Source: a virus. From it: a DNA stretch of 64,000 bases. Position numbers and translations under genes: made by a program. The notes under the pieces were generated by a model. The model was not told where the DNA came from. It did not search any database and saw only the letters and a program-made list of their open reading frames with translations. Shown one piece after another: positions 36,948 through 63,206 of this stretch (position 1 is its first letter; each line of letters starts with the position of its first letter). The stretch spans positions 10,867 through 74,866 of the IMG/VR virus record IMGVR_UViG_3300037155_000072, one strand, 5' to 3'.

Positions 36948-37514
36948 TTAACCTTTCGCGGCATAGCCACAAAGCTTTCTCCGGAGAGCCTTCGCCACCG
37001 AGGGGGTAAGAGAGGACAGGGTTTTGCAAAAGTTCTGGCGGCGTTCTATTTCGTTCTCGATTGCTTCCCACAACGCGTCGAGCCCGGCCACGTGCAGCTC
37101 AATAGCGGACATCTGGCGCTCCAGAAGAACGAGAGTTGTTTTCTGCGCCGGAACTCGGGAGTCCAGCACCGTGCCGCGCCGTTGAAAAAGCTTGTAGGCG
37201 CGCTGGGCGTTCTCTCGTGTCGCACAAACCCGGTGCAAACGCCGGTCCAGTTTCTCCCAGGTCAGTGACTGGAGACGCACCGAGACTTTCTGCTCTTGGG
37301 GAATTGCAACCCGCTTGGACTCGAATACCGTAGCTCGTGCCTCGCGCCAAGTCTTTCGTTCGCTATTGGTTGAGTGTGCCAGGGGCGCACAAAGCATTTC
37401 TGTCGCGACTTCCTTGGGCAGGTGGTCTTTATCCACGATTTTGAGTTGTTCGCCCCGGTTCCGTTGGTTGACGAATTCGGCATCCCGTCGATTTTGATTA
37501 ATGTGATTATTCAT
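36948..37514 (-). CDS. Hypothetical protein
   Basis: ORF in operon. Confidence 0.5.
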   Translation of the reverse strand: MNNHINQNRRDAEFVNQRNRGEQLKIVDKDHLPKEVATEMLCAPLAHSTNSERKTWREARATVFESKRVAIPQEQKVSVRLQSLTWEKLDRRLHRVCATRENAQRAYKLFQRRGTVLDSRVPAQKTTLVLLERQMSAIELHVAGLDALWEAIENEIERRQNFCKTLSSLTPSVAKALRRKLCGYAAKG

Positions 37515-38493
37515 TTGTATTAGTTTTGTTTGTGTCTTGTTTGTTTAAAATCTCCACCTCTTTGAAAACTGTCCAGCCCGAGGTGAGTTTGCCGAGATAC
37601 CATTGCGCGAACCCTTGAACTACCCCTCGGAGAATTCCCTGTTTAAACTCTGCGAAAAGTTCTTGCTTAATCCAATCAGACTCCTCGGCAAGTAAATCGG
37701 TTTGGAGCTCGGCGATGAGCGGACCGATGTCTTTGGCTTCCTGTTTCAAGACGCCCTGTTCGCGGAGGTGCTGCACGGCTTTCAACCACCGGGCTTCCGT
37801 TCGTAGCTTCTTGGTCAGCTTTTCACCAATCGGACCAAATCCAGCCTCCCCCTTCGGGTGCGCTTTGAACCCCATTTTTTCTTTGAACTTGTCGCTGACT
37901 ACCTTGGCCGTCATCGGATGCCCGGGGCGCTCGCCGTGGGATTTCGAATAGTTCTTGAGCACGAAGCCCTCGATTTTACAGCCTCCGAGGCTCGACTCAA
38001 GGTGTAGTAACGTCGAGGAAAAATCCGCGGTCGGTGCGGGCTGCCCATGCCACAGCCTCGCAACTACCTCCAGGCCCAAAAACATAGCGTGACGTTCCTT
38101 CTCCGCCACGTCCAGATATTCCCCGGAGGAGTCGATAACGTCGAACAGCACCAGATTGCCCTTCGGCACCCGGCCGTATGTTAGGACGTTATGCTTCGGC
38201 TTGGCAAGGAATTCGCATTGATACGTCCAGCCCTCGCTTAGCACCGCGTCTTTAAAGCAGCGATGCGCGGATTCGACAGCGAGTTTAAACATGCCGGGAT
38301 TTTCTTGGTCAATCACGGTGGACTTGCTACGGCAAATAAGCGCCATGAGTGCCCCCGTCATGGAATAGGCATCGGGCGCAACATTAAACGAAAATTGGCT
38401 GCCGTCGTATTTCTCTTCAACGACGACGGTGCCGTCGAGGATACCGGCGGTGTGCCGTTCGCCCAGGCGATATATTTTTGGTATTGTAGTCAT
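37507..38493 (-). CDS. ATP-dependent RNA ligase (Rnl2-like)
   Basis: EEKYDGSQFSF, EF, LFDV, IEGFVLK, AKVVSDKFKE nucleotidyltransferase motifs. Confidence 0.8.
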   Translation of the reverse strand: MTTIPKIYRLGERHTAGILDGTVVVEEKYDGSQFSFNVAPDAYSMTGALMALICRSKSTVIDQENPGMFKLAVESAHRCFKDAVLSEGWTYQCEFLAKPKHNVLTYGRVPKGNLVLFDVIDSSGEYLDVAEKERHAMFLGLEVVARLWHGQPAPTADFSSTLLHLESSLGGCKIEGFVLKNYSKSHGERPGHPMTAKVVSDKFKEKMGFKAHPKGEAGFGPIGEKLTKKLRTEARWLKAVQHLREQGVLKQEAKDIGPLIAELQTDLLAEESDWIKQELFAEFKQGILRGVVQGFAQWYLGKLTSGWTVFKEVEILNKQDTNKTNTNE

Positions 38494-38497
38494 AATC

Positions 38498-38803
38498 TCA
38501 AAGAACCGCTGACACATTATCAGACTCTACCGAAGGTGCAACCCCTATTTCACTGATTTCTACGATTTCAGTTTCGATAATAGGTTGGTTAAGTTCAGCA
38601 CAGAAATCTACTGCCACCTTTACCAGCCGGTCAAACACGAACGGGGGCACCACGTAACCGCACGGGCCGCCCGAGGATGAAATGATTATTTTCTCCGGAC
38701 CGTTCCATCCATAAGAGATTTGACCGTGCTTAAACTCCTCGCGCAAGACAGAGATTTCGTAGTAAGTCCCCGAGCATCCGAAAACATTGACTTTCCATTT
38801 CAT
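38498..38803 (-). CDS. Hypothetical protein
   Basis: ORF in operon. Confidence 0.5.
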   Translation of the reverse strand: MKWKVNVFGCSGTYYEISVLREEFKHGQISYGWNGPEKIIISSSGGPCGYVVPPFVFDRLVKVAVDFCAELNQPIIETEIVEISEIGVAPSVESDNVSAVL

Positions 38804-44475: not shown

Positions 44476-44790
44476 GCGAGTCCGAACCGAAAGTGTCCCG
44501 TGTTTGGACAGTGTGCTCGGCCTCCGCTCTATTGTAGGGCCTATACCACTACAGGTTGTGGTGTGACAAGGCTCACCACCATTAGGCCAGTGCGCCTTTC
44601 TTTAGAAAGATTTCCAATACCCCCGACCCGCACCTGGAGCCGCGCAGGGCGGCTAGCCGCGGCCGGTCGGCGGCACGAGGTGCCCCGGCCCTCCCAAAAT
44701 CGGCCGGGGGTGTCGGGGGGTTTTTCGTGGCACGATTCTCGCTTAGTGGCTCAAACGAGAGATGAAAAAACTGGTATCGAAAAAAAAAGG

Positions 44791-44826: not shown

Positions 44827-45147
44827 ATGAGCAATACTCCTCCGACACCGATTGAGCAGTCCCAGGCGGACTACGACCATTTCTATGCGCACCCTATGCT
44901 GACCATGGAGTCGGCGGCTCTACTCGCCAACGCAACCGCCCTGAACCGGCAGACGGCCCTCCGCGCGGAGGCCTGGGAGAAACCTCCCGTGACCGTCCCG
45001 ATTCACCCGGACCTGGACGAGCTGTCCCAGGAGCTCCTAACGACCCGGACTTACCTCGCCCGGTTGTGCAGCTTGGTTGACCACAACAGCAGCGCCCTCA
45101 CCGCCGAAGTTCGAGACCTACTTTTCGAAATCAAAACAAACCTGTAA
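44827..45147 (+). CDS. Hypothetical protein
   Basis: Start set by upstream promoter. Confidence 0.55.
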   Translation: MSNTPPTPIEQSQADYDHFYAHPMLTMESAALLANATALNRQTALRAEAWEKPPVTVPIHPDLDELSQELLTTRTYLARLCSLVDHNSSALTAEVRDLLFEIKTNL

Positions 45148-45552: not shown

Positions 45553-45628
45553 CGCGGGGTAGCTCAGAGAAAGAGCACCGGGGTGTATTCCCCGGAGGTC
45601 GGAGGTTCAATTCCTTCTCCCGCGACCA
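45553..45628 (+). tRNA. Atypical tRNA, 8-nt anticodon loop (GTGTATTC; possibly GTA)
   Basis: Full cloverleaf, TTCAATT T-loop, A-CCA; anticodon arm CCGGG-GTGTATTC-CCCGG. Confidence 0.7.
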
Positions 45629-45637
45629 ATTTTAAAT

Positions 45638-45714
45638 TGCGGGGTGGAGCAGCCTGATAGCTCGTCGCGCTCATAACGCGAAGGTCGGTGGTTTAAATCC
45701 ACCTCCCGCAACCA
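45638..45714 (+). tRNA. tRNA-CAT with initiator-like body
   Basis: TCGCG-CTCATAA-CGCGA; fMet-like D arm; U1:A72 paired; CCA. Confidence 0.85.
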
Positions 45715-45718
45715 ATTT

Positions 45719-45790
45719 GGGCGGTCGTCTAACAATGTAGGACACCGGTCTTGACCGGAAAAGTAGGATTCTAAACCTGCCCGCCCGCCA
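45719..45790 (+). ncRNA. tRNA-like RNA with 4-nt anticodon loop (CTTG), Gln-like
   Basis: GGGCGG/CCGCCC-G-CCA, D stem, CCGGT-CTTG-ACCGG, GTAGG/CCTGC T arm. Confidence 0.65.
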
Positions 45791-45798
45791 ATCTAATC

Positions 45799-45947
45799 GC
45801 CGGGACTTTCCTCCCTTAAGTGGAGAGAATATGCGATACCGCTCCAAGGCCCGGCAACCTGGAGCGCGCCACTCGAAGGCGTAGTTGACTGGAGCCGAAA
45901 CGTAGAAGTTCGAGGACCGGCCGTCAGGGGCACGATACGCTCCACCA
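45799..45947 (+). ncRNA. Unassigned structured RNA ending in stem + CCA
   Basis: GCCGGG/CCCGGC; TGGAGCG/CGCTCCA-CCA-ATTT. Confidence 0.5.
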
Positions 45948-45950
45948 ATT

Positions 45951-46182
45951 TCCCCGTGCGGGGATGGAGTCACAAAAGCAGTGTGGCGCGAGTCGCACGC
46001 ATACAAAACTCCGGCGGCCCTTATTGGCCGGAAACGCGGCGGAAGTCTCCCTCGAAAGGGGCACAGGAAACCGCTGCGACAATTTAAGGCTAGCTGGAGC
46101 CTAAAACCGAGCCCGGCGTGTTTCAATTCTACTGAGCTCTGTCGCCGGTTTCAAGCAATCAGAGCCTGTGATTTTTCGGTTT
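45951..46182 (+). ncRNA. Unassigned structured RNA(s)
   Basis: Successive helices TCCCC/GGGGA, GGAGT/ACTCC, CGCGGCGG/CCGCTGCG with GAAA-capped hairpin, AAACCGA/TCGGTTT. Confidence 0.45.
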
Positions 46183-46197
46183 GTTCTTTGTCAATTT

Positions 46198-46535
46198 GGG
46201 CGTGAACTGGTTTCGACTTTGTCGGAGCCGTAGATAGCGCATGCACAGGATGTCTCGTTGGCCTGTTTAAACACCGAGGCAAAACATAAATGCTAAAAAC
46301 TCCGTAATGGAAGTGATTGACGCAGGTATGCAGTTGTTCGATATGTGTGCTCGGCCGGTCCGTGTCGCTGTTACCAACGGCGCGCGGGCAGTGAAGCAAA
46401 GCATCCGAGTCCAGTCTGGATTCGTTTCAGTGCCGTCAATGGCCTGATGGTGGAGGTAGGTAGTTCGGTAAGCATGTAAATCGTTTTCGAAAGCAGCGAC
46501 AAAACACGCGAGTTCGAATCTCGCCACGTCCACCA
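46198..46535 (+). ncRNA. ssrA: tmRNA with 51-codon tag ORF (46292-46447)
   Basis: GGGCGTG/CACGTCC-A-CCA with G3.U70; GGTTTCGAC; GCATGC/GCATGT helix 2; pk1; ATAAAT-GCT resume context; GCGAG-TTCGAAT-CTCGC T arm. Confidence 0.9.
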
Positions 46536-46537
46536 TT

Positions 46538-46725
46538 TCCCCGGGGCTGCAATCCTGGGGAGTATCGTGAGGGAAGTAATACGAGGGCCACCTACCCGGG
46601 AAAGGTAAGGTTCGTTAAAAGTCCTTCACAGCACCGGAGTAAAGGCCATAGAGAAACGAAGCACGTGAACTTCGGTCTCGGGCTCACACGAACAGCCTAT
46701 TCGACTCGTCACCTTCTCCGGTCAA
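46538..46725 (+). ncRNA. Unassigned structured RNA(s)
   Basis: TCCCCGGG/CCTGGGGA; GTGAGGGA/TCCTTCAC; ACCGGAG/CTCCGGT enclosing two hairpins, then CAATTT. Confidence 0.45.
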
Positions 46726-46731
46726 TTTTTT

Positions 46732-46814
46732 GGTCCGATAGTGTAAGAGCCTCTAAGCACAGCCAGGTGTTAACCCGGATTGGAGGGGCATTGCTCAAGC
46801 CTCACGGACCGCCA
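46732..46814 (+). ncRNA. tRNA-like RNA (GTT/Asn-like) with non-canonical T arm
   Basis: GGTCCG/CGGACC-G-CCA; GTGT/GCAC D stem; TGTTAA loop; GAGG/CCTC enclosing 13 nt without TTC. Confidence 0.55.
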
Positions 46815-46820
46815 ATTTTA

Positions 46821-46963
46821 TGGCCGACTAGTTTAATGGGATAGAGAACGCACGCGCAGGGAATAGACCACAAGTGTCCGGAGTTATATACCCGGCCGCC
46901 GGGAACCGTTTGGATGAAATCCGAATTCGCGTGAATGCCAGTTCGACTCCGGCTCGGCCACCA
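46821..46963 (+). ncRNA. tRNA-like RNA with 71-nt insertion in anticodon arm
   Basis: GGCCGA/TCGGCC-A-CCA; D arm; CACGCG[46857-46927]CGCGTG; TTCGACT T loop. Confidence 0.7.
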
Positions 46964-46968
46964 ATTTT

Positions 46969-47097
46969 ATGACACCACAAGTTTTCACCGTCGTCGCGGG
47001 CGCGCTCATCTACCTCGCGGCAAAAACAGTTTACTACGTTGCCGTCATCGCCGCGGGAATCGTGGTTGCCCGATTCTGCAAGTGGGGTGACTCCTAG
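46969..47097 (+). CDS. Small membrane protein (holin-like?)
   Basis: 42 aa, almost wholly hydrophobic. Confidence 0.45.
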   Translation: MTPQVFTVVAGALIYLAAKTVYYVAVIAAGIVVARFCKWGDS

Positions 47098-47100
47098 GTA

Positions 47101-47663: not shown

Positions 47664-48554
47664 ATGGCACTTGTTCTCTCGGCATCGGACTCGGCACGCA
47701 TCCAGTGGGTTATCGACAACCTCATCACCGGAAGCGCGGGTAAATTCATCGACAGCACCTCAATCGAACAGCTCGCTCTCGTCTTCGGGCAGGAATGCGG
47801 TTTTCGATGTGGTTGCCCAGGCACTTTTCAAGAAGGCATGCGGGATACACCCTTCGCTACGCTTTTAACGGCGATGCTCTGCAAGAACATCACCCCAGCC
47901 CCTAACCCCATTGTTCCCGTCGTCCAGCTTCCGTGCGTGGACCTGTTGACCGCGAAGACCTATGCGATTTTGGCCAACACCGCAGTCACGAATACCGGCG
48001 CTTCGGTAATCAACGGGGACCTCGGCATCTCTGCGGGTAGCGCAGTGACCGGTTTCGATGTAATCGACGCAGGCCCGGGCCACGTGAACGGGGCTTACCA
48101 TATCACCGACGCGGCGGCTGCACAGGCCAAGCTCGACTTGACGGCCGCGTATCTCCTCGCCCAGGGGCTCACCCCCTCGACTCTCATCGCCGCCGACATC
48201 GCGGGAATGACCATCACTCCTGGAAACTACTTCGCTTCTTCAAGCTTGCAGGCCAGCACCAGTGTCACGTTCGACGGTCAGAACAACCCGGCCGCGTGTT
48301 TCGTGTTCCAGATTGAATCGAGTTGGGAACTGATGAGCGGCGCGTCTATCAACCTGATTAACGGTGCCCTGGCGTCCCGTATTTTCTTCAAGGTCGGCAG
48401 CTCCGCGACCCTAGACACTACGTCGTCAATGCAAGGAAATATCCTGGCGCTCACTTCTATCTCTGTGCTGACCGGCGCGCAGGTTCATGGCCGGTTGCTC
48501 GCGCGCAACGGCGCGGTGACATTACAAAGTAACACAATTTCCATTCCTGCATGA
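47664..48554 (+). CDS. Ice-binding protein (DUF3494 / IBP-1 fold)
   Basis: YAILA..AVTNTG.S.INGDLG; AQAKLDLTAAY; TITPGNY; FVFQI; NGA.ASRIFF.VGSSATL; GRLLARNGAVTL.SNTI. Confidence 0.9.
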   Translation: MALVLSASDSARIQWVIDNLITGSAGKFIDSTSIEQLALVFGQECGFRCGCPGTFQEGMRDTPFATLLTAMLCKNITPAPNPIVPVVQLPCVDLLTAKTYAILANTAVTNTGASVINGDLGISAGSAVTGFDVIDAGPGHVNGAYHITDAAAAQAKLDLTAAYLLAQGLTPSTLIAADIAGMTITPGNYFASSSLQASTSVTFDGQNNPAACFVFQIESSWELMSGASINLINGALASRIFFKVGSSATLDTTSSMQGNILALTSISVLTGAQVHGRLLARNGAVTLQSNTISIPA

Positions 48555-60540: not shown

Positions 60541-61290
60541 ATGGCCCTACACCACTCCAACAAGATTTTAATTGCCTTACAATATTGGTCGGGAGATAGA
60601 ACCCGAGCTCTAAAGCTGGCAAAGTATCTCGCAGACCTGGAGCCCGCTCACTCAGACCTTGCGGACATCGTTCTAGTGAATCGCTTCGATTGTCCGCAGG
60701 ACTCTCCCGCTACGCTGGCCGCCCTTTCTCGGAAATTTAATGTCTACTCCTATAAGAGTCCACAGCGAGGAGTCGGCTGGCCTGATGGATGCAACGGGCT
60801 TTGGTTCGGGACCGTAGAGTGGGCTTATACAATGATGGCAGATAAGAAGATTCCGCACTACAAAGCGATTTTCACTTGCGAGGCCGACGGTGCGCCAGTT
60901 CACCAGGATTGGATTGCGAGAATGTCCACGGCTTGGGATGTATCGCAGCAAGGCGCGTCCCGAGTCTACATGGCCGGTGCCCTGGTAAGCTATCCAGGAG
61001 TCTACGAGCATATAAACGGGAACTGCTTAGTATCGGGGGATGGTCCGTTTCTTCACTGGGTGACCCGAGTCGTGGCCGGTATGCGCGCTGGTGTTGGGTG
61101 GGATTATGGGCTTCGGGATGAGTTTCGACGGTGGGGATGGGCGAACGTCCCGGGGATTATCAGCGCCTACAACACCCCTCACTTCACCCCCGAACAGTTC
61201 GCGCACTTTCGAGCGCAAGAGTTGATTTGGATTCACGGTGGAAAAGACGAGTCTCTCATTCAATATGGCCGGGAGTTCTTCAAAGTATGA
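60541..61290 (+). CDS. Putative GT-A glycosyltransferase
   Basis: FTCEAD (ExD), HINGN, GWD, HG.K; context. Confidence 0.55.
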   Translation: MALHHSNKILIALQYWSGDRTRALKLAKYLADLEPAHSDLADIVLVNRFDCPQDSPATLAALSRKFNVYSYKSPQRGVGWPDGCNGLWFGTVEWAYTMMADKKIPHYKAIFTCEADGAPVHQDWIARMSTAWDVSQQGASRVYMAGALVSYPGVYEHINGNCLVSGDGPFLHWVTRVVAGMRAGVGWDYGLRDEFRRWGWANVPGIISAYNTPHFTPEQFAHFRAQELIWIHGGKDESLIQYGREFFKV

Positions 61291-62198
61291 AAACCAACGA
61301 CTCCATTTTGGTGACGGGCGCGCGGGGGCTTGTCGGCAGCGCGATTGTTAGGCTGCTTAAGAAGAAGGGATTTACGAATGTCTGGGACCCGTCCCGGAAG
61401 GACGCAGATTTTGAAAGCCAGGAGGCAACCGACTTCTACTTCAGCGAGTGCAAGCCAGAGTATGTTTTTCACTGCGCTGCGAAGGTTGGGGGTATTGCGG
61501 ACAACATACGAGAGCCTGCGACTTTTTTGACGGCAAACCTAACCATCCAAACCAACGTGATTTGCGCGGCGAACAGGTTTGACGTTAGTAAACTTCTGTT
61601 TCTATCGAGCGCCGCGTGCTACCCCGATACCGGGAGCGCCATTCTATCCCCCCAGGACATCATGCGCGGCCCGCTGGATGAAACGAAATCCGGATACGCG
61701 ATGGCGAAGCTTTGCGGCATGCAGTTGTGCAAGGAATTCCGGAAGCAATTCAAGTCCGACTTTATCTCTGTCATTCCGAACAACGTCTACGGCCCAGGGG
61801 ATAAAAGTTCCCACGTTATACCGGATTTGATTCGCCGGTTTTACCAAGGCCGAATTACGCGCTCCGCAGTGACGTGCTGGGGCACCGGAAGTCAGCGCCG
61901 TGAATTTATCTTTGCTGATGACTTGGCCGACGCCTGCATTTTCCTGATGGAAAATTACAGTGGCCCGGACCCAGTGAACATAGGCGCGAACAGGGATTGG
62001 GACATGATGGCCCTCGCGTTGCTTGTGGCTAGCGTCACGGAATATACCGGACCAATCTATTGGGATGTCTCAAAGCCAGAGGGCGCGAAGCAGAGGCTGC
62101 TGAACTGTGCGGTCATGAATGAATTCGGATGGCTGCCAAAGACGTGCCTTCTCGACGGGCTGACCCGGACGTTTAAACATTTTCTTACCACGATATGA
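61287..62198 (+). CDS. fcl: GDP-L-fucose synthase
   Basis: GARGLVGSAI, AAKVGGI, YAMAK, PNNVYGPGD, SHVIP, WGTGS.RREF. Confidence 0.93.
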   Translation: MKTNDSILVTGARGLVGSAIVRLLKKKGFTNVWDPSRKDADFESQEATDFYFSECKPEYVFHCAAKVGGIADNIREPATFLTANLTIQTNVICAANRFDVSKLLFLSSAACYPDTGSAILSPQDIMRGPLDETKSGYAMAKLCGMQLCKEFRKQFKSDFISVIPNNVYGPGDKSSHVIPDLIRRFYQGRITRSAVTCWGTGSQRREFIFADDLADACIFLMENYSGPDPVNIGANRDWDMMALALLVASVTEYTGPIYWDVSKPEGAKQRLLNCAVMNEFGWLPKTCLLDGLTRTFKHFLTTI

Positions 62199-62237
62199 GA
62201 AGTTGCCGGGAATAGAATATCTTCAAAAGACAAACAC

Positions 62238-63206
62238 ATGTCAAAAGTAGCTCTTATAACAGGTATAACAGGTATGGACGGGTCTCATCTTGCCGAGAGC
62301 CTACTGGCCGAGGGCGTCGAAGTTCACGGAGTGATGCGCCGCGCCAGCACGTTCACGACCGTTAGGATAGACCACATATTTGACCGACTCCACATTCACT
62401 ATGGAGACCTGGGGGAGAGCGGCGCTCTCCACAGAATTCTCGAACGCGTGCAACCTGATGAAGTCTTTAATTTGGCGGCCCTCAGCCACGTGAAGGTCTC
62501 TTTTGAAGTTCCGGAGTATACGGCGGACATTACGGGGGTGGGGGCGCTACGACTCTTTGAAGCTATCCGGGAGGTCGGGCTGCTTTCTCGGGTTTACCAA
62601 GCGTCTTCTAGTGAGATTTTTGGGTCCTCTCCTCCCCCTCAAAATGAGTTAACACCTTTTCACCCGAGAAGTCCTTATGGGTGCTCAAAGCTGTTTGCTT
62701 ATTGGACTGCTGTGAATTATAGAGAGGCTTACGGTATGCACGTCAGTAATGGGATTTTGTTCAACCATGAAGGCCCCCGGCGGGGTCTTACGTTCGTGAC
62801 GCGAAAGATTACTCAAGCAGTTGCCCGAATAGTGAGACACCAGCAAACTGAGCTACTGCTCGGGAACCTGGATGCGAAGCGGGATTGGGGATTCGCGGGG
62901 GACTATGTGGAAGCGATGAAGCTTGTGGTCCGAATGGAGAAACCAGACGACTACGTGATTGCCACCGGGATGGCGCACACGGTCCGAGAGTTTTGTGACC
63001 TCGCCTTCTCTTATGTTGGATTGAAGTGGCAGGATTACGTGAAGGTTGACCCGAAATATTTTCGTCCGGCCGAGGTGGATTTTCTCCTGGGAGATGCCTC
63101 AAAGGCAAAAAAGATTTTGGGATGGACCCCGACCGTCACATTTCCAGAGTTGGTCCGAATGATGGTTGACCACGACCTTGACGCCCCGCACCTCTCTCCA
63201 GTATGA
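62238..63206 (+). CDS. gmd: GDP-mannose 4,6-dehydratase
   Basis: [58 protein letters not shown]. Confidence 0.97.

Follow-up and report, generated by a model that had tools for sequence, protein, structure and literature searches.

A phage transfer-messenger RNA that lacks pk2 to pk4 and probably carries a 51-codon tag frame

The subject of this report is a gene for a transfer-messenger RNA (tmRNA) at positions 46198 to 46535 of the window, meaning the whole 64,000-nucleotide stretch of DNA that was analysed, which comprises bases 10867-74866 of an IMG/VR virus record (IMGVR_UViG_3300037155_000072, complete at 74,866 bp) from an uncultured phage of peat soil. The RNA is a genuine phage tmRNA. 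It keeps the tRNA-like domain (TLD), helix 2, the first pseudoknot (pk1) and the resume site, it has no conserved counterpart of pseudoknots pk2 to pk4, and it probably carries a tag reading frame of 51 codons, about five times the length of the Escherichia coli tag. On balance we lean towards a working rescue tmRNA whose whole frame is translated as far as its UGA stop, with no special function for the peptide. To our knowledge, the tags of phage tmRNAs have hardly been studied. In one survey, tmRNAs were found in 2.3% of phage genomes (PMC9004378).

Identity of the RNA and its core elements

The full Rfam tmRNA model RF00023 (positions 1-374) matches 46198-46535 at 77.3 bits (E 2.7e-28), against a gathering score of 47. 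An earlier note, made from the letters of this DNA, had described a phage tmRNA with an intact alanine-type domain, helix 2 and pk1, and had named ARAGORN and Infernal with a tmRNA model as checks; the full-length Rfam match and the elements read from the sequence bear the description out, while ARAGORN, even at lowered thresholds (-ps80), called no tmRNA in the window. The features of the gene are as follows.

46198-46535 (+): one-piece tmRNA gene, 338 nt, Rfam RF00023
46198-46204 (+): 5' strand of the acceptor stem, GGGCGUG, with G3 of the G3.U70 pair; 7/7 pairs with 46525-46531
46218-46244 (+): 5' strands of helix 2, UUUGUCG and GCAUGC, read from the sequence; partners at 46471-46476 and 46497-46503
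46245-46281 (+): pk1, ACAGG/CCUGU plus UGUCUCG/CGAGGCA, from a search for H-type pseudoknots
46286-46294 (+): resume context, AUAAAU followed by GCU (46292-46294), with A at -4 and U at -5
46292-46447 (+): tag reading frame, 51 codons plus UGA, from translation and codon usage
46343-46404 (+): long hairpin H-b within the open reading frame (ORF), apical loop ACC, minimum free energy (MFE) z-score -3.3
46406-46424 (+): predicted hairpin H-c within the ORF, part of an extra 30 nt that the homologue L132 does not have
46427-46447 (+): predicted terminal hairpin with GCC-UGA, the equivalent of helix 5
46448-46456 (+): UGGUGGAGG, a conserved purine-rich linker that follows the stop and precedes helix 2, present in the window and in homologues L132 and L172
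46508-46535 (+): T arm GCGAG-UUCGAAU-CUCGC, 3' strand of the acceptor stem CACGUCC, discriminator A and CCA, from sequence and Rfam

With 46198 counted as position 1, helix 2 pairs 21-27 with 300-306 and 42-47 with 274-279, and pk1 (48-52/65-69 plus 54-60/78-84) was the top candidate of the pseudoknot search in the 5' part of the RNA. The acceptor stem, GGGCGUG/CACGUCC, is followed by discriminator A and an encoded CCA. All three helical elements show compensatory changes across three lineages, those of the window and of two homologues, L132 and L172, described below: the acceptor stem recurs in homologues as GGGCGCG/CGCGUCC and GGGCACG/CGUGUCC with G3.U70 invariant throughout, helix 2 of L132 reads UUUAAUC/GGAUUAAA and GCACGC/GCGUGU, and stem 1 of pk1 in L172 is AGUGG/CCACU. 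The L172 tmRNA ends in UCCA (1063-1066), and so has U as its discriminator where the other members have A.

The resume site and the tag frame

Immediately before GCU 46292, A(-4) and U(-5) occupy the positions of A86 and U85 in E. coli tmRNA, which set the reading frame there (PMC2481249). The context AAAU, then GCY-AAN, is common to the window and to L246, L247, L248 and L257, members of a phage family (described below) whose frame is proven by their peptides, and the window's frame is thus fixed by homology. Translation from GCU gives 51 codons to UGA at 46445-46447, with a peptide, AKNSVMEV...VPSMA, identical to that given in the earlier note; the 3' strand of helix 2 follows only 23 nt after the stop. 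Both the frame that the earlier note had read and its remark on the scarcity of space behind the stop are therefore upheld.

Codon usage was scored with a log-odds table from 26 long genes of the window phage. The tag frame scores 0.303, a value reached by 8 of 2000 stop-free shuffles (p ~0.004) and close to that of in-frame windows of the phage's genes (0.329 +- 0.151); out-of-frame gene windows score -0.52 +- 0.26, with 0.05% of them reaching the tag's value, and the tag's own +1 and +2 frames score -0.55 and -0.50. An overlapping open frame of 52 codons, taken as a control, scores -0.073, which 955 of 2000 shuffles reach. Across the three codon positions, the GC content of the tag is 0.61/0.45/0.59, compared with 0.60/0.46/0.64 for the genes.

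Homologues at the same locus

Homologues were sought in 48 related IMG/VR records and in 80 metagenome loci anchored on a conserved 658-aa protein encoded downstream. One of the 48 records (G004; L132 = L146 = L147 = L171) has a tmRNA, of 311 nt and 75.4 bits, as do three of the 80 loci, namely L171 again and L172 = L219 (386 nt, 78.7 bits). The polymerase of the L132 phage is 53% identical to that of the window phage. Window, L132 and L172 have the same order of serine recombinase, tmRNA, tRNA and 658-aa protein, and the relatives' tmRNAs likewise have tRNAs alongside. The 5' part of the window RNA is 81% identical to that of L172 over 80 nt (E 7e-14). The three frames compare as follows.

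Window: resume codon GCU, 51 codons, ending ...VPSMA, stop UGA
L132: resume codon GAU, 38 codons, ending ...HMILA, stop UGA
L172: resume codon GAU, 35 codons, ending ...ALVIA, stop UGA

From the aligned resume codon, the L132 and L172 frames are free of early stops and run through to a common GCC-UGA in the terminal hairpin (CUGGCC-UGA-GGCCAG in L132, CUGGUCA-UAGCC-UGACCAG in L172, UCAG.GCC...GGCCUGA in the window). Their lengths differ from that of the window by 39 nt (L132) and 48 nt (L172), both multiples of three, which is the result expected of selection for reaching the shared stop. In the comparison of tags among homologues, which the earlier note had suggested, the open frame and in-frame stop are kept, length varies from 35 to 51 codons and the peptide drifts. 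Codon usage and the conservation of frame and stop make it likely that the long frame does encode a tag, as that note had proposed.

Beyond these loci, BLAST of the tmRNA against 50,697 GenBank phages gave no match, pattern scans of IMG/VR with the 5' TLD, pk1 and the 3' TLD returned generic tmRNAs or the L132 phage only, and the pk1 motif was not found across 185,579 bacterial and archaeal species genomes.

Peptide drift and RNA structure within the frame

In the sub-lineage of the window and L132, the peptide appears to drift while the frame stays open and gene-like. The sole block shared by the two tags is LFDMCARP, whose codons form the 5' strand of the closing stem of H-b, a hairpin of ~60 nt that is also predicted in L132 (MFE z-score -4.1). 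Within the block the two sequences differ by two nucleotides, both changes being synonymous and both compensated on the opposite side of the stem (in each case a U-A pair becomes C-G); the residues encoded by that opposite strand differ between the two RNAs. In the apical stem, two 1-nt gaps in the DNA alignment prove to be the two sides of a single base pair, and another pair differs as G-C versus A-U. Conservation within the frame thus tracks RNA structure in this sub-lineage. The proposal that such a long hairpin in the ORF is conserved across the wider phage family was rejected, as RNAalifold yields only a short one.

Viral contigs and a set of 5.8 billion proteins yielded no homologue of the tag peptide, Pfam gave no match to it, and the ESM Atlas returned nothing usable (best 0.76). 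The tags end in -SMA in the window, -ILA in L132 and -VIA in L172, a hydrophobic residue plus Ala in each case, and such a nonpolar, Ala-terminal end looks degron-like, although a proteolysis signal of the -(L/V/A)AA type is not present in the window tag. The earlier note had suggested a non-degron or functional peptide; this part of it is not supported, the peptide being unconserved beyond the helix-strand block and the hydrophobic-Ala end being kept. An identical 11-mer, TGTGCTCGGCC, occurs in the tag frame at 46348-46358 and at 44514-44524, in non-coding-looking DNA upstream of a gene with its ATG at 44828; this repeat was spotted post hoc and may be due to chance.

A phage-only family with long tags

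The L172 tag includes the nine-residue core APSVAEADA, and a scan for this peptide pattern found 16 viral loci, every one of them (16/16) inside a tmRNA gene. Members of the family (the uncultured viral contigs L003, L172 and L246-L258) have tags of 30-35 residues, for example ANNNVDMAPSVAEADAILAKHGWAEEAAVAA, and RNAs of 386-472 nt; apart from L172, the ranges are 392-472 nt and 30-34 residues. When the codons of 13 distinct members are aligned, 30 of the 31 columns vary at the third position, compared with 17-18 at the first and second positions, and the tag frame has 656 synonymous codon differences, versus 103 and 130 in the shifted frames. The core serine is encoded by AGC in one member and by TCN in the others. 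This codon-alignment signature shows that the long tags of the family are under selection as peptides. The family tag was found in none of the 185,579 species genomes, one member gave no BLAST match among the 50,697 GenBank phages, and ARAGORN mis-starts or misses several of the genes.

A functional peptide is plausible for the APSVAEADA family, but this reading is unsupported for the window tag, from which the nine-residue core is absent. The L132 tag is likewise unrecognised by the family tag profile. An apparent full-length homology between the window and family tags in a MAFFT alignment (SGFV, AK[ND]xV) was rejected because the profile score is not significant.

Fate of the missing pseudoknots

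In the window and L132, the search for H-type pseudoknots found no conserved pseudoknot within the ORF, and the stretch after the stop is too short to hold one, in agreement with the earlier note. That note had also taken the ORF to occupy the space of pk2-4. The ORF does fill that space, but the homologues indicate that it is not derived from pk2-4: L172 already has a 35-codon ORF and then pseudoknots, with an H-type pseudoknot straight after the stop hairpin (212-258), and L252 has several H-type pseudoknots after its ORF. The linker UGGUGGAGG is confined to three RNAs (the window; L132, 1531-1539; L172, 972-980) and absent from the other family members. In the window and L132 it lies directly or 6 nt past the stop; in L172 it lies ~85 nt past the stop, just before helix 2. 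As this linker is a shared 3' border, the segment between it and the stop hairpin would have been lost in the window lineage. The linker also includes a Shine-Dalgarno-like GGAGG, and its UGGUGGA and the 3' end, UCCACCA, are complementary.

In the simplest history, an L172-like ancestor would have had a structured ORF of 35 codons followed by pseudoknots, the lineage of the window and L132 would have deleted the pseudoknot segment, and the window ORF would have been lengthened by in-frame insertions of 9 nt near its start and 30 nt before its stop. Judged from these alignments, the window ORF is an expanded ancestral tag frame, with pk2-4 apparently deleted rather than overwritten. Pseudoknots pk2 to pk4 are regarded as dispensable for tagging in vitro.

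Comparison with known tmRNAs

The window RNA shares with canonical bacterial tmRNA (E. coli, tag ANDENYALAA) the tRNA-like domain, G3.U70, CCA, helix 2, pk1, an A-rich linker with A at -4, a GCN resume codon and a stop in a terminal hairpin; by analogy, dependence on SmpB is probable. Unlike that RNA, it has no pk2-pk4, its frame of 51 codons contains stable hairpins, its tag ends in -SMA and not -LAA, and the phage that carries it has no smpB. The APSVAEADA family resembles it in resume context, in the homologous 5' part, in the locus of L172, in long tags and in being restricted to phages, but family RNAs have pseudoknots after the ORF and most of their tags end in -AA (-VIA in L172), whereas the window RNA is 338 nt long with neither those pseudoknots nor the nine-residue core, and has 51 codons.

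Mycobacteriophage Bxz1 likewise has a complete tmRNA gene in a phage tRNA cluster and a tag that is longer than usual, 25 residues (ATDTDATVTDAEIEAFFAEEAAALV) (PMC4131195). Its RNA, in contrast, is 435 nt long and recognised by ARAGORN, its tag is half the length of the window's, and BLAST found no nucleotide similarity between the two. In mycobacteriophage DS6A, canonical tmRNA domains have also been lost in a phage setting, leaving a TLD-only molecule for which titration of SmpB has been suggested (PMC4131195); it retains little beyond the tRNA-like domain, whereas pk1, the resume site and a full tag frame are all still present in the window RNA. Two further viral contigs have matches of ~80 nt that span tmRNA model positions 1-374 (L039, 11301-11380, 64 bits; L040, 2603-2685, 71.5 bits), which appear to be TLD-only mini tmRNAs like that of DS6A.

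Genome and gene neighbourhood

The polymerase of the window phage is less than 30% identical to those of GenBank phages, and the phage has no cultured relatives. Around it stands a large group of uncultured phages, with polymerase matches of 53-82% identity on contigs of 45-77 kb, the closer ones at 62-82%. DNA near-identical to the window occurs in peat and permafrost metagenomes of many studies; contigs from four peat/permafrost runs have zero variants within the tmRNA, and runs with a low share matched the tRNA-Met only. No smpB was found in the 74.9-kb phage genome. The tmRNA belongs to an RNA island with two tRNAs.

45553-45714 (+): two tRNA genes of the same island, upstream of the tmRNA, from ARAGORN and Rfam

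One of them has an anticodon loop of 8 nt and the other is tRNA-Met (CAU). The tRNA at 45553-45628 (Rfam tRNA, 51.2 bits) is given by ARAGORN a four-base anticodon, 'gtat', with no amino acid assigned, and could be frameshift-suppressor-like or a remodelled phage tRNA. The gene-poor flanks of the tmRNA, ~1 kb in all (45715-46197 and 46536-47100), have no Rfam match, and a promoter and terminator scan returned nothing on the + strand near the gene. Flanking proteins of 215 and 296 aa have no close relatives, and the N-terminal part of the 215-aa ORF is probably spurious.

Several further genes lie elsewhere in the window. An RNA ligase family protein at 37507-38517 (-) (PF09414, E 1.7e-12), encoded 8 kb away from the tRNA/tmRNA island, may act in RNA repair. 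Along with the tRNA island, it is the only context for the possible link to host tRNA or mRNA cleavage that the earlier note had raised. At 47664-48554 the phage, which comes from peat and permafrost samples, encodes a protein with a strong Ice_binding (DUF3494) domain (Pfam E 4e-55). Side by side at 61131-63206 lie genes for two enzymes of sugar-nucleotide metabolism, an NAD-dependent epimerase (Pfam E 5.5e-57) and a GDP-mannose 4,6-dehydratase (Pfam E 3.7e-127).

Proposed action and competing explanations

As a working rescue molecule, the tmRNA would be excised from the transcript of the tRNA/RNA island and, by analogy with known tmRNAs, charged with alanine by the host alanyl-tRNA synthetase through G3.U70. 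Since the phage has no smpB of its own, it would use the SmpB of the host. The RNA would enter stalled ribosomes, on which translation would resume at GCU 46292 and proceed for 51 codons, through the embedded hairpins, to the UGA at 46445-47 in the helix-5-like hairpin; rescued proteins would in that case acquire a 51-residue tail ending in -SMA. The hairpins within the ORF may occupy the space between pk1 and helix 2 after the loss of pk2-4. The main benefit is likely to be the release of ribosomes during infection together with a generic nonpolar C-terminal end, and not a specific function of the peptide.

A number of results weigh against this explanation. Openness alone is weak evidence for a tag, because 15% of dinucleotide shuffles of the 153-nt frame are also stop-free, and other frames of the same RNA have open runs of 52 and 58 codons. 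The sub-type comprises just two distinct sequences, those of the window and L132, which leaves the statistics of frame conservation weak, at roughly 0.1 for the in-frame indels. The codon-usage signal of the L132 tag is not significant (183/2000), and the window tag peptide is not conserved in L132, its nearest homologue. LFDMCARP is unusable as coding evidence, since its synonymous changes are compensated in the partner strand. The family tag profile gives the window tag a score of -0.3, which 365 of 5000 shuffles reach and which is not significant; the tag ends in -MA and not in the canonical -AA; and a translating ribosome would need to unwind the stable hairpin H-b. As to expression, there are no RNA sequencing runs among the listed runs with near-identical DNA.

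Some of these results would suit an RNA that acts through its tRNA-like domain and pk1, for example by titrating host SmpB or competing with host tmRNA, with the frame as an untranslated, structure-driven remnant that is open by chance. TLD-only molecules are known from phages, DS6A with its suggested SmpB titration among them (PMC4131195), and similar matches occur in L039 and L040; conservation within the ORF tracks RNA helices, and openness at this length is common enough among shuffles. Such a decoy nonetheless strikes us as unlikely. The resume context with A at -4 has been retained, the stop lies in frame in a conserved terminal hairpin in 3/3 lineages, and codon usage is gene-like in the tag frame, which is not so for the control open frame. 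Resumption in another frame or at another codon, giving a short tag of conventional kind, is harder still to credit, and we give it almost no weight. The +1 frame is indeed short (AUG CUA AAA ACU CCG UAA), and A86C mutants of E. coli tmRNA can shift frame (PMC2481249). That frame, however, would begin on CUA or AAA and not on a codon starting with G, whereas A(-4) and U(-5) indicate GCU; family members with AAAU before GCY are proven to use the frame read in the window, and neither L132 nor L172 has kept the short alternative frames.

The remaining alternative accepts translation and gives the product a purpose, the 51-residue tag being a functional peptide module whose role would be to redirect, protect or exploit rescued proteins and not to mark them for ClpXP. 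The wider phage-only family, with its tags of 30-35 residues under clear selection at the peptide level and found in none of the species genomes, lends this idea some attraction, as does the gene-like codon usage of the window tag. We think it improbable for the window: the tag has no APSVAEADA and no significant score with the family profile, the only block in common with the nearest homologue is explained by RNA pairing, neither Pfam nor the ESM Atlas offers a look-alike, and the C-terminus is still a hydrophobic residue plus Ala, as in degradation tags. A rescue tmRNA with a fully translated frame and a peptide of no special function therefore remains the explanation that we prefer, if with restrained confidence.

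Implications for phage tmRNAs

The window RNA suggests that a natural tmRNA can do without pk2-4 while still retaining every element of resumption, and that a tag frame can reach 51 codons while also serving as RNA structure. Such genes go unannotated because ARAGORN misses them. In its most far-reaching form, the case would be one of a natural tmRNA without pk2-pk4, with the longest tag seen so far (51) and a frame that doubles as a scaffold, belonging to a phage-specific lineage in which functional long-tag peptides decide the fate of proteins from stalled host ribosomes; taken as a whole, we hold this to be possible but doubtful. Together, the window tmRNA and the APSVAEADA family offer a testable system for asking what a phage may gain from placing its own tag on stalled host proteins.
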